From NCBI RefSeq assembly GCF_003334335.1, contig NZ_QOWQ01000107.1: a DNA stretch of 1,427 bases; one strand, written 5' to 3'. The first letter of the stretch is position 1, and each line of letters begins with the position of its first letter. This DNA comes from Escherichia coli. GTDB lineage: Bacteria; Pseudomonadota; Gammaproteobacteria; Enterobacterales; Enterobacteriaceae. The notes below the pieces were generated by a model, which was not told where the DNA came from, searched no databases, and saw only the letters and a program-made list of their open reading frames with translations. A program made the position numbers and the translations under genes. Shown here one piece after another: positions 1-1,427 of this stretch.

Positions 1-131
1 TCTGCGCGAGTGTGCGGGGATAATCAAAAACGATACACACCGGGGTTTACCGCGTTAACGGAGCGTGGCGTTGTCCCCTCATGGTCGCTCGTCCGGTGCG
101 ATGGTGGAAGAAACTGGATTTTGTTGCAACT

Positions 132-144: not shown

Positions 145-152
145 ATTTTCTC

Positions 153-159
153 GGGTCCT
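153..159 (+). other. cosQ-like element (GGGTCCT), needed in lambda to terminate packaging at the downstream cos
   Basis: Seen in sequence: GGGTCCT lies exactly 30 nt upstream of the predicted top-strand nick (182/183). Established knowledge (from memory): this is the same heptamer and spacing as lambda cosQ. Confidence 0.6.
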
Positions 160-182
160 TTCCGGCGATCCGGGCCGTTACG

Positions 183-194
183 GGGCGGCGACCT
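183..194 (+). other. cosN cohesive-end sequence GGGCGGCGACCT; predicted nicks between 182/183 (top strand) and 194/195 (bottom strand), giving 12-nt 5' overhangs
   Basis: Seen in sequence: exact 12-mer GGGCGGCGACCT, preceded by CCGTTACG and followed by CGCGG. Established knowledge: this is the lambda cohesive end, with the flanks as I recall them for the lambda right and left termini. Confidence 0.85.
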
Positions 195-231
195 CGCGGA
201 TTTTCACTATTTATGAAAATTTTCCGGGATC

Positions 232-243
232 CATGTCCGGTTT
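232..243 (-). repeat. R3-like putative small-subunit binding element (AAACCGGACATG on the minus strand)
   Basis: Seen in sequence: catgtccggttt is the exact reverse complement of the 12-mer at 319-330. It sits at offset 50-61 from the left end, close to lambda R3 as I recall it. Confidence 0.5.
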
Positions 244-252
244 CTCTGCAAG

Positions 253-285
253 TTAACCATATGAAAAATATAAAAACATGCTTTC
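253..285. promoter_or_regulatory. AT-rich, A-tract-containing spacer; candidate IHF-binding/bending site analogous to lambda I1
   Basis: Seen in sequence: ttaaccatatgaaaaatataaaaacatgctttc lies between the first and second repeat copies. The minus strand reads CATGTTTTTATATTTTTCAT, reminiscent of the lambda I1 segment as I recall it. I could not find a clean match to the IHF consensus WATCAANNNNTTR. Confidence 0.3.
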
Positions 286-288
286 CAT

Positions 289-300
289 GAACCGGACATG
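289..300 (+). repeat. R2-like putative small-subunit binding element (GAACCGGACATG, 11/12 match)
   Basis: Seen in sequence: the 11-mer AACCGGACATG (290-300) is identical to 320-330. Offset from the left end is 107-118. Confidence 0.5.
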
Positions 301-318
301 CGCAAAAAATAGACACTA

Positions 319-330
319 AAACCGGACATG
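319..330 (+). repeat. R1-like putative small-subunit binding element (AAACCGGACATG), with an adjacent partial inverted copy (ACCGGTTTTG, 331-340)
   Basis: Seen in sequence: aaaccggacatg, immediately followed by accggttttg, so AAAACCGG (318-325) and CCGGTTTT (332-339) form an 8-bp inverted repeat around ACATGA. Confidence 0.5.
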
Positions 331-368
331 ACCGGTTTTGTTGTGATTGTGAGGTGAGAGTTTTTGCG

Positions 369-377
369 AGGTGAGGA
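369..377 (+). promoter_or_regulatory. Shine-Dalgarno region for the small terminase gene (GAGGTGAGGA)
   Basis: Seen in sequence: purine-rich GAGG at 369-372, 5 nt upstream of the GTG at 378. An in-frame TGA at 372-374 closes the frame upstream, so GTG 378 is the first possible start. Confidence 0.55.
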
Positions 378-887
378 GTGGCTACGCAGACTGAAGTTGC
401 CAGGCATTTAAGTCTGACCGATCGCCAGCTTCGCAGATTGCAGAAATTGCCGGGTGCCCCGATATCGAATAAGCGAGGGCAACTGGATCTGGATGCCTGG
501 CGCGATTTTTACATATCGTATCTGAGAAGAAGTAAAAACGATGTGCCTGATGGCGATAGCGAAGACGACTATGAGGAGAAATTGCTTATTGCCAGATGGG
601 AACTGACAGCAGAACAGGCTGTTACACAGCAGTTAAAAAATGAGGTGTCAAAAGGAAAACTTATTGACACCGGGTTCTGTATTTTTGCCCTCAGCAAGCT
701 GGCAATGGCGTTATCCAGTACGCTTGATTCCATCCCTTTATCCATGCAGCGACAGTTTCCTGATTTAACACCGCGCCATCTTGACCATCTGAAAACCCTT
801 ATTGCGAAGGGGGCAAATCAGTGTGCGCGGGCGGGGGATAAATTACCGGATTTACTCGATGAATATATCAGAGCAACAACTGAATAA
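378..887 (+). CDS. nu1: Terminase small subunit (lambda Nu1 family), 169 aa, GTG start; N-terminal winged-HTH DNA-binding domain divergent from lambda, C-terminal large-subunit-interaction region conserved
   Basis: Complete ORF in the supplied track. Its C-terminal half (GFCIFALSKLAMALSSTLDSIPLSMQRQFPDLTPRHLDHLK...LPDLLDEYI) aligns by eye to lambda Nu1 as I recall it (AFCTFVLSRIAGEIASILDGLPLSVQRRFPELENRHVDFLK...IPGLLSEYI). It lies directly after cos and overlaps the gpA-like gene as in lambda. The N-terminus (EVARHLSLTDRQLRRL) fits an HTH pattern but differs in sequence from lambda. Confidence 0.9.
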   Translation: MATQTEVARHLSLTDRQLRRLQKLPGAPISNKRGQLDLDAWRDFYISYLRRSKNDVPDGDSEDDYEEKLLIARWELTAEQAVTQQLKNEVSKGKLIDTGFCIFALSKLAMALSSTLDSIPLSMQRQFPDLTPRHLDHLKTLIAKGANQCARAGDKLPDLLDEYIRATTE

Positions 888-1427
888 TATGATGAGTGCT
901 GTCACAACAGCATTACAGCCCCTGATAAGGGCATTGCCGGTGACGCCAGTTGAATGGGCTGATCAAAATTATTATCTGCCTAAAGAATCTTCATATGGTG
1001 AGGGAGAATGGAAAACGCTGCCGTTCCAGATCGCCATCATGAACAGCATGGGGAATGATCAGATCCGGACTGTTAATCTGATTAAATCTGCCCGTGTTGG
1101 CTATACAAAGATGTTGCTAGGAGTCGCCGGGTATTTTATTGAGCATAAATCCCGAAACAGTCTGCTTTTTCAGCCCACGGATTCTGCCGCTGAAGATTTT
1201 ATGAAGTCTCACGTGGAGGCGACGATTCGGGACGTGCCATGCCTGAAAGATCTTTCCCCGTGGCTGGGACGTAAACATCGTGACAATACTCTCACGCTGA
1301 AACGCTTTTCATCGGGGGTGGGCTTCTGGTGCCTGGGTGGTGCGGCAGCAAAAAACTACCGTGAAAAATCCGTGGACGTGGTCTGCTATGACGAACTTTC
1401 CTCGTTCGAGCCGGATGTCGAAAAAGA
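859..1427 (+). CDS. A: Terminase large subunit (lambda gpA family), N-terminal 189 codons; 3' end lies beyond the window
   Basis: My translation from ATG 859 (frame +2 relative to the small subunit gene) gives MNISEQQLNNMMSAVTTALQPLIRALPVTPVEWADQNYYLPKESSYGEGEWKTLPFQIAIMNSMGNDQIRTVNLIKSARVGYTKMLLGV..., open to the window end. This matches lambda gpA as I recall it (MNISNSQ...VEWADANYYLPKESAYQEGRWETLPFQRAIMNAMGSDYIREVNVVKSARVGYSKMLLGV), including Y46, K76 and K84 of the KSARVGY(S/T)K ATP-binding segment (nt 1084-1110). The ORF is absent from the supplied track, presumably because it has no stop codon in the window. Confidence 0.92.
   Translation, partial: MNISEQQLNNMMSAVTTALQPLIRALPVTPVEWADQNYYLPKESSYGEGEWKTLPFQIAIMNSMGNDQIRTVNLIKSARVGYTKMLLGVAGYFIEHKSRNSLLFQPTDSAAEDFMKSHVEATIRDVPCLKDLSPWLGRKHRDNTLTLKRFSSGVGFWCLGGAAAKNYREKSVDVVCYDELSSFEPDVEK

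Follow-up and report, generated by a model that had tools for sequence, protein, structure and literature searches.

Why does the resemblance to phage lambda stop abruptly within a packaging site and return only in the terminase genes behind it? We analysed a 1,427-nt stretch of Escherichia coli DNA (the window), which comprises the cohesive-end (cos) site of a lambda-like E. coli prophage and the beginning of its terminase operon: the signals cosQ, cosN and cosB are followed by terS, encoding the small terminase subunit TerS (homologue of lambda gpNu1), and by the 5' part of terL (large subunit TerL, homologue of gpA). A preliminary description of the window had proposed a modular exchange of cosB together with the DNA-binding domain of TerS, and our data favour that proposal, through breakpoints against close relatives and incongruent relationships of the two TerS halves. 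We put the probability at roughly 0.8 that a cassette extending from ~228 to ~580-674, and made up of a complex cosB plus the predicted helix-turn-helix (HTH) domain at the TerS N-terminus, was swapped as a unit onto a lambda-type cos core and terminase. The observations that carry this reading are the anatomy of the sequence, the breakpoints, the conflict between the TerS halves, the conservation of positions among relatives and an association between the cosB repeats and a helix of TerS.

Divergence from lambda is uneven along the window. Identity is 42% at 1-125, 78% at 126-152, 91% at 153-227 and 52% at 228-377, followed by 61% at 378-580, 59-60% at 581-887 and 64-68% in terL. In a maximum chi-square scan the lambda-similar island was bounded at 130 and 227; identity was 87-90% within it, against 42% on its left and 57% on its right. 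The 52-61% found over 228-580 is close to forced-alignment background, and the DNA there is unalignable. The lambda-like termini that had been placed at about 150-230 are real, with 87-91% identity over 131-227 and a collapse at 228/229 to ~50%, but the similarity begins at ~131 and not at ~150, and the lambda string that had been quoted, CGCGGGTTTTCGCTATTTATGAAAATTTTCCGG, is genuine lambda sequence (KT232076). Also as proposed, protein similarity returns in the C-terminal half of TerS and in gpA: identity to gpNu1 is 21% over the N-terminal 66 residues and 44% over the C-terminal 94, identity to gpA is 66% over the N-terminal 189 amino acids, and the PF07471 (Phage_Nu1) profile matches TerS residues 49-150 only (E 1.4e-18). 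The statement that everything from ~231 through some 60 TerS codons is unrelated to lambda holds for the DNA; in the protein a weak, in-register alignment of the HTH is found.

The conserved core shows the features of a lambda-type cos site: cosQ lies at the lambda distance from cosN, and the cohesive end is flanked by ACG and CG. By analogy with lambda, the nicks would fall at 182/183 (top strand) and 194/195 (bottom strand). A global alignment of 152-227 to lambda contains seven mismatches (166, 173-176, 200 and 206), which cluster between cosQ and cosN, only two of them within 177-227. For the stretch 153-227, the 91% identity to lambda compares with 91% to phage PhiR5_1, 88% each to a 21-like phage and a Klebsiella prophage, and 87% to a prophage of Citrobacter. 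A phylogenetic footprint of nine loci from five genera, all with the TerS type of the window (type A, defined below), contained as invariant blocks only cosQ, the left half of cosN, the core of the spacer corresponding to the lambda I2 region, and the cores of the cosB elements R3, I1 and R2. The packaging-termination signal cosQ (PMC4669245) is invariant in 9/9 aligned type-A loci, and the spacer core TTATGAAAATTT, invariant in the same nine, is present in 21-like and N15-type loci too. Variation of cosN among the relatives is found mainly in bases 6-12, a pattern likewise reported for lambda-like phages, and conservation of cosQ and cosN extends to all lambda-like cos phages (PMC4669245). 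Since the core is equally similar to many relatives, we attribute its conservation to constraint by TerL and not to kinship with lambda: judged from these alignments, the cosQ/cosN/I2 core is a TerL substrate under purifying selection rather than a recent acquisition from lambda. The preliminary description, which had called cosQ and cosN lambda-identical, was right about the high identity, but the core is not a lambda-derived module. The comparison with lambda alone therefore shows constraint, not exchange.

The joints of the cassette appear when the window is compared with closer relatives. PhiR5_1, which carries a 21-like cosB and TerS N-terminus, is 98% identical to the window at 1-125, 93% at 126-152 and 91% at 153-227, and 53% at 228-377; the chi-square maximum (chi2 101) places the switch at 229, with 95% identity up to this position and 57% beyond it. 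We explain the sharpness of the 228/229 boundary by two forces that meet there, constraint by TerL on the left and an exchangeable recognition cassette on the right. At the other end, an E. coli prophage with an N15-type TerS N-terminus (locus L006, protein P0056) is 53-56% identical to the window up to ~585 and ~88-90% from ~674 onward, the breakpoint at 674 separating 57% from 88%, and two loci with sub-variants of the window's own type, L007 from Klebsiella and L016 from E. coli, switch at 582 and 578, respectively. A scan with the N-domain alignment yielded 80 IMG/VR contigs with the cassette, all of whose loci are 97-99% identical and give no information on covariation; the linkage of cos core, cosB, terS and terL is preserved in them. 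In most of the 80, unrelated sequence replaces the stretch left of ~126-152, which therefore marks a further mosaic joint. The locus thus combines abrupt identity shifts against close relatives, incongruent adjacent segments and a variable left flank, as is characteristic of a lambdoid mosaic. Window positions 1-125, which follow the lysis genes, are 94-100% identical to many Stx1-, Stx2c- and other Shiga toxin (Stx)-converting phages and to PhiR5_1, and cannot be aligned with lambda.

The two halves of TerS tell conflicting stories. Alignment of ~100 TerS relatives obtained by protein search showed three N-terminal types that sit on closely similar C-halves and meet them at the motif (D)YEEKLLIARW: type A, that of the window, begins MATQxEVAxHL..., type B begins MAFLLNKSDMASSIG... 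and is 64.5% identical to N15 gp1, and type C is the lambda/21 type. Between the window and the type B protein P0056, identity is 14% in the N-domain and 88% in the C-half, and between P0022 (type A) and P0063 (type C) it is 26% and 94%. Within type A the N-domains are closer, with 61% in the N-domain and 95% in the C-half for the window and P0010, and 67% and 70% for the window and P0021. Such incongruence between the halves supports a domain exchange; congruent halves, which would have refuted the proposal, were not seen. In the sequences compared, the C-half and TerL that accompany the cassette also occur with N15-type and lambda/21-type cassettes, and TerL itself (N-terminal 189 amino acids) is 80% identical to that of the 21-like phage and 92-93% identical to those of L006 and L007.

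The DNA half of the cassette is built around the 11-mer AACCGGACATG, which is present in the window in three exact copies and one copy with a single mismatch; at up to two mismatches, four copies were observed against 0.43 expected, and 0/200 shuffles reached four. The copies form an arrangement that corresponds to the lambda order R3-I1-R2-R1 of a complex cosB (PMC4669245, PMC9026076): there are three repeats 3' of cosN, the first of them in the range of bp ~48-65 counted from the first cohesive-end base, and R2 is inverted relative to R3. The R3-R2 distance, centre to centre, is 58 bp in the window and ~57 bp in lambda, and the published position of R3 is bp 50-65 in lambda and bp 48-60 in N15 (PMC9026076). 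TCCGGTT, the core of R3, and AACCGGA, the core of R2, are invariant at fixed positions in the nine footprint loci. Only some relatives (L011, L007) have an R1 equivalent; the short cosB of L009, L017, L018 and L019 has none, which fits an accessory role like that of lambda R1. In the window, R1 and its overlapping inverted copy form an imperfect palindrome (313-344). In lambda-type complex cosBs R1 is oriented like R3 and opposite to R2 (PMC4669245), whereas in the window R1 lies on the plus strand like R2, and only the copy at 327-337 has the orientation of R3. The candidate site I1 for integration host factor (IHF) is followed by an A/T-rich tract to ~278. A scan of cosB for the IHF consensus at one mismatch or fewer found no match; the same alignment column contains a perfect consensus in L007, L016, L017 and L019 and one mismatch in L009, and the validated I1 of lambda, read by eye at this position, has two mismatches.

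Table. Features of the cos-terS-terL window, with coordinates counted from its first nucleotide; bp numbers in the remarks refer to the mature left end
Feature	Position	Strand	Remarks
cosQ, GGGTCCT	153..159	+	-30 to -24 from first cohesive-end base; lambda-identical at the same offset
cosN, cohesive-end 12-mer GGGCGGCGACCT	183..194	+	12/12 bases as in lambda, the 21-like phage (PhiR63_2), a Stx1 phage and PhiR5_1
cosN-cosB spacer (lambda I2 region), CGCGGATTTTCACTATTTATGAAAATTTTCCGG	195..227	+	2 mismatches to lambda
Left joint of specificity cassette	228..229	.	maximum chi-square 229 vs PhiR5_1 (chi2 101), 227 vs lambda
R3 equivalent, predicted TerS site, exact AACCGGACATG	232..242	-	bp 50-60
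Candidate IHF site I1, TAACCATATGAAA	254..266	+	reverse complement of consensus WATCAANNNNTTR, 2 mismatches; bp 72-84
R2 equivalent, predicted TerS site, exact AACCGGACATG	290..300	+	bp 108-118; inverted vs R3
R1 equivalent	320..337	.	AACCGGACATG at 320-330 (+), overlapped by inverted 1-mismatch copy at 327-337 (-); bp 138-155
terS Shine-Dalgarno sequence, GAGGTGAGGA	368-377	+	
terS (Nu1 homologue)	378..887	+	GTG start, open reading frame of 169 aa; PhiR12_1 annotation; PF07471; PHROG 57
terS codons 1-55	378-542	+	predicted HTH DNA-binding domain
Putative recognition helix	420-443	+	TerS residues 15-22
TerS codons 56-65			acidic linker
TerS from ~codon 66			shared oligomerisation and TerL-binding part
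Right-hand joint zone of cassette	578..674	.	TerS codons ~67-99; breakpoints 582 (L007), 578 (L016), 674 (L006)
terL 5' part (gpA homologue)	859..1427	+	29-nt overlap with terS; runs off the window; PhiR12_1 annotation

The sequence of the cosB repeats differs by TerS N-terminal type. Loci of type B (L006, L015) have GGTTGTTGTT, ACAACAACC and GGTTGTTGT at the positions of R3, R2 and R1, and thus the R3 motif of N15, and type C loci have lambda-like or 21-like repeats. Within type A the repeat follows the putative recognition helix: a helix with ...RQLRRLQK, and thus Arg20, is accompanied by AACCGGACATG (the window, Salmonella L009, Enterobacter L011 and Citrobacter L014), and a helix with ...R(R/W)(L/V)RDLQK or ...RQ(L/F)RNLQK, with Asp or Asn at residue 20, by AACCGGAA(A/G)T(G/C) (L007, L016, L017, L018 and L019). 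In eleven loci, base 8 of the repeat tracks residue 20, with C for Arg and A for Asp or Asn. Independent support comes from two distant phage genomes. The Aeromonas phage phiARM81ld (L102 1-270), an N15-like linear-plasmid prophage with a simple cosB of the window's type, has Asn at the equivalent position; its genome starts at the cohesive end (GGGCGTTAGACC), with CATTTCCGGTT at bp 52-62 of the physical left end (CATTTCCGGTTCCGGTT at bp 52-68), terS beginning at bp 79 and, within terS at bp 251-261, the exact copy AACCGGAAATG in inverted orientation. This layout closely parallels that of N15 (R3 at bp 48-59, rR2 at bp 249-260), whereas the recognition sequence is different. The Pseudomonas phage LPPA33 also has Asn, with TTTCCGGTTCCGGTT just 5' of its type-A terS start; no cosN was located in the LPPA33 record.

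An HTH fold is predicted for the N-domain. In the AlphaFold2 model it is arranged as b-H(4-10)-H(15-22)-wing-H(38-54), with a predicted local distance difference test score (pLDDT) of ~85, and is followed by a disordered acidic linker. Foldseek comparison of the full-length and N-domain models with the PDB gave top matches all of one fold class: MerR-type winged HTH proteins (RacA, RdfS, MerR-family), the packaging-motor DNA-binding domains 7lw0 and 7lwr, and the Rpp/TerS entries 6hlk and 6hn7 (6hn7_B). The domain is therefore likely, as modelled, a winged HTH of the gpNu1/MerR type. Sequence searches of solved structures, with the single protein and with a type-A N-domain profile, gave no meaningful match. 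The whole protein matches phrog_57 (residues 1-169, E 1.7e-55); the match of its N-terminal 67 amino acids to the same family (E 9e-11) was not relied on as proof of gpNu1 homology, because this PHROG may itself include type-A members.

Could the same pattern have arisen without any exchange, by vertical descent from a lambda ancestor in which TerL froze the core while fast in-place co-evolution made cosB and the TerS DNA-binding domain unrecognisable? Constraint of this kind predicts a cos core about equally like all lambda-type phages (PMC4669245), as is observed, and since the N-domain retains a faint in-register HTH likeness to lambda and 21, in-place divergence explains the comparison with lambda taken alone. 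It fails on PhiR5_1, which is 98% identical in the non-coding 1-125 and 91-93% in 126-227 and then drops to 53% in cosB; it fails on the TerS pairs with N-domain and C-half identities of 14%/88% and 26%/94%, and on the occurrence of the same C-half with three N-terminal types within one species, and we consider it improbable. That the 87-91% island has sequence not alignable with lambda on either side would also be expected if cosQ and cosN had recently been transferred directly from lambda and 150-227 were a lambda-derived patch. Against this, the island is as close to the 21-like phage (88%), PhiR5_1 (91%) and the Klebsiella (88%) and Citrobacter (87%) prophages, its seven differences from lambda in 76 bp are clustered between cosQ and cosN, and the closest matches of the 150-227 stretch are E. 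coli prophages and not lambda, which leaves the idea of such a transfer with almost no weight.

A different kind of doubt concerns the repeats, which might serve another regulator as operators, or belong to a promoter or terminator of the late operon, while TerS reads something else. The palindrome that R1 makes with its inverted copy could suit a hairpin or a dimeric regulator, and binding of TerS to the AACCGGACATG repeats is a prediction. On the other hand, the repeats lie at fixed distances from cosN in five genera, matching where R3 and R2 are placed in lambda and N15; their sequence differs between TerS N-terminal types and, within type A, tracks helix residue 20; and phiARM81ld has the same motif at bp 52-62 of its physical end together with the rR2-like copy inside terS. 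We regard this alternative as very unlikely.

Several points weigh against the exchange of a recognition cassette as we have read it. The breakpoints were located by a simple maximum chi-square scan of forced pairwise alignments, not by a formal recombination test on multiple sequences. The Foldseek matches are non-significant (template modelling score 0.5-0.6, best E 0.33), and a profile-profile comparison with the lambda/21 TerS gives a weak, though in-register, alignment of the HTH of the N-domain (E 0.009, probability 4.5%); the better value for the N15 type (E 1e-4) comes partly from the shared junction motif. At two mismatches, IHF matches in the window are at the level of chance (13 hits against 15 expected), and the I1 call therefore relies on positional conservation and the better matches in relatives only. 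R1 is oriented as R2 here and as R3 in lambda, and the higher-order complex may differ. Because the loci are related, the association of residue 20 with base 8 may reflect only one or two evolutionary events. TerS binding, nicking and packaging are, for this cassette, predictions from sequence, and a different-looking cosB is no guarantee of an exclusive specificity.

With the lambda mechanism as a template (PMC4669245, PMC9026076), we infer how the exchanged cassette may work. IHF would bend the DNA separating R3 from R2, and this bend would present the inverted R3/R2 pair to a dimer of TerS DNA-binding domains. The C-terminus of the bound TerS could then hold or position TerL, which would nick cosN 50 bp away at the positions predicted above, and R1 with its inverted copy may add affinity. 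Binding of TerS to the repeats, use of IHF, the nick positions and the specificity are all inferred in this scheme.

How does the cassette relate to systems of known specificity? Compared with cos-lambda and gpNu1, the window has the same cosQ, the same 12-base cohesive end and an I2 spacer with 31/33 identical bases; R3 at bp 50-60, the candidate IHF site at bp 72-84 and the inverted R2 at bp 108-118 stand at lambda's R3, I1 and R2 positions, terS, which begins at bp 196 of the mature left end (bp 191 for lambda Nu1; PMC9026076), overlaps terL, and the TerS C-half (44%) and TerL (66%) are homologous. The R sites, in contrast, are unrelated, AACCGGACATG here and CGTTTCC-type repeats in lambda, R1 with its overlapping inverted copy is oriented like R2 and not like R3, and TerS is 12 amino acids shorter, lacks the EIENEKLRREVEELRQ segment of gpNu1 and is 21% identical to it in the N-domain. 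Phage 21 is the classic case of a lambda-compatible cosN with an incompatible cosB. The window resembles 21 in combining the shared cosQ and cosN with a private cosB and a private recognition helix, and its TerL is nearer to that of 21 (80%) than to that of lambda (66%); the DNA-binding domain of 21, however, is of the lambda type (56% identical to lambda), whereas that of the window is of a separate type (20% identical to the 21-like protein), and the R sites differ.

The N15/Monarch group has simple or complex cosBs with GGTTGTTGTT R sites (PMC4669245). Its likeness to the window is that of another DNA-binding domain, the third kind, recombining onto the same TerS C-half (P0056, P0069), and type A, like N15, also exists both as a complex cosB (the window) and as a simple one with a remote inverted site inside terS (phiARM81ld); in the terS of the window, a scan for an rR2-like copy of AACCGGACATG found none. 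The N-domain of the window is 14-17% identical to N15-type proteins, and the R motif is another one.

None of the three experimentally defined specificities is thus recognisable in the window: its cosB is 52% identical to lambda (unaligned), with an N-domain identity of 21% and an hhalign probability of 4.5%; for phage 21 the values are 58% in cosB and 20% in the N-domain against the 21-like protein, with different R sites; and for N15/Monarch there is no GAGGTTGTTGTT-type R3 motif and an N-domain identity of 14-17%. By these sequence comparisons, the cassette lineage is distinct from lambda, 21 and N15/Monarch, and it probably represents a fourth packaging specificity and not a new mechanism; it would not be expected to cross-package with lambda, 21 or N15. 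A stronger proposal, to which we give even odds, is that the AACCGGA(C/A)ATG cosB and the MATQxEVAxHL TerS form a fourth specificity that excludes the other three and comprises at least two sub-specificities, in which Arg20 and Asp/Asn20 read C and A, respectively, at position 8, and that it is present in about one fifth of complete E. coli genomes, often in two copies and O157:H7 included, and partitions mobilisation.

The cassette (195-600, coverage of at least 80%) was found in 1156/5426 complete E. coli genomes (21%), O157:H7 among them, and the median number of places per genome is two. Salmonella, Klebsiella, Citrobacter and Enterobacter have full-length relatives, and more distant forms exist in Aeromonas and Pseudomonas phages. 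In the phage collection, the PhiR12 phages are the only E. coli phages that carry it; as a prophage element it is common. No description of the cassette or of the PhiR12 phages was found in the searchable literature, which is weak evidence since many relevant papers lie outside the search. A shared cos core with an exchangeable cosB and TerS DNA-binding domain is already known from lambda and 21 and is ordinary lambdoid mosaicism; what is mildly useful is that this cassette is very common and lies outside the three tested specificities. Because one helix residue tracks one base pair, it is a clean natural resource for studying the code by which lambda-type small terminases recognise DNA, and it bears on which prophages of enterohaemorrhagic E. 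coli can package each other's DNA. If its specificity were exclusive, it would partition mobilisation among resident prophages, defective prophages and cos-bearing islands.

The induced phages PhiR12_1 to PhiR12_5 (PV340549-PV340554) are 98.7% identical to the window over its full length, positions 195-600 are 100% identical in a prophage of E. coli 2015C-3121 (NZ_CP027340.1), and the PhiR12 phages, this prophage and the window are the same element. The deposited PhiR12 records do not begin at cos. In PhiR12_1 the stretch is annotated as non-coding after Rz, then 'terminase subunit Nu1' and 'terminase DNA packaging protein A'; the profile match of TerS together with a gene directly upstream of, and overlapping, a GpA-type terL agrees with a Phage_Nu1 small subunit. 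The 2015C-3121 prophage continues with terS, terL, W, portal, S49 protease, decoration protein and major capsid protein, i.e. the head module follows in the lambda order Nu1-A-W-B-C-D-E. Phage-inducible chromosomal islands (PICIs) combine a lambda-like cosN with a foreign cosB (PMC9026076), but a PICI cos was ruled out as the identity of the window because terS, terL and a full head module in lambda order follow. The PhiR12_1 record also contains a 40-amino-acid 'hypothetical protein' on the minus strand (window 207-329; L001 3207-3329), which lies wholly over I2, R3, I1, R2 and R1; as the conserved cosB anatomy covers the same stretch, this reading frame is probably spurious, and so, probably, are the mechanically called frames at 143-316 and 207-407 of the window. 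Just 5' of the terS GTG, a direct repeat (TTGTGAGGTGAG at 347-358 and TTGCGAGGTGAG at 364-375) doubles the Shine-Dalgarno-like GAGGTGAG.

Immediately 5' of cosQ, the minus strand of 132-150 strongly matches the E. coli Fur-box consensus GATAATGATAATCATTATC, at 17/19 bases, a match for which 0/200 shuffles gave any hit at up to three mismatches, and the stretch (126-150) contains an inverted repeat (128-137 / 139-148). Lambda (GATGATAATCATTATCAC), Stx1 phages and PhiR5_1 have the element as well, and other cos loci have it in part; it accounts for the similarity to lambda that extends left of cosQ to ~131. A literature search for a Fur box with cosQ found no paper.

Two E. coli loci of different TerS type, L016 (2285-2345, type A) and L006 (2243-2305, N15-type), have in common a quite different sequence at the position of cosN (…CACCGGGGGACGGCAGACGCGCAAAAAC…), while both retain cosQ and a TATTTATGA(A/G)A(A/T)TTTTC spacer; the cohesive-end sequence would therefore also be exchangeable independently of cosB. 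Inside terL, the window is 98-100% identical to PhiR12_1 throughout except at 1201-1350, where identity is 84-92%; identity to PhiR5_1 and to the 21-like phage falls there too and is back to 94-100% at 1326-1427, and by these alignments 1201-1350 is a small secondary mosaic patch. In E. coli O157:H7 FRIK2455 (L100 2684-5406), a copy of terS is split after ~codon 90 by ISEc8, an insertion sequence of the IS66 family, and is annotated as two pseudogene fragments, which probably explains the separate PHROGs families phrog_7289 (the N-terminal piece, 'unknown function') and phrog_1790 (the C-terminal piece).

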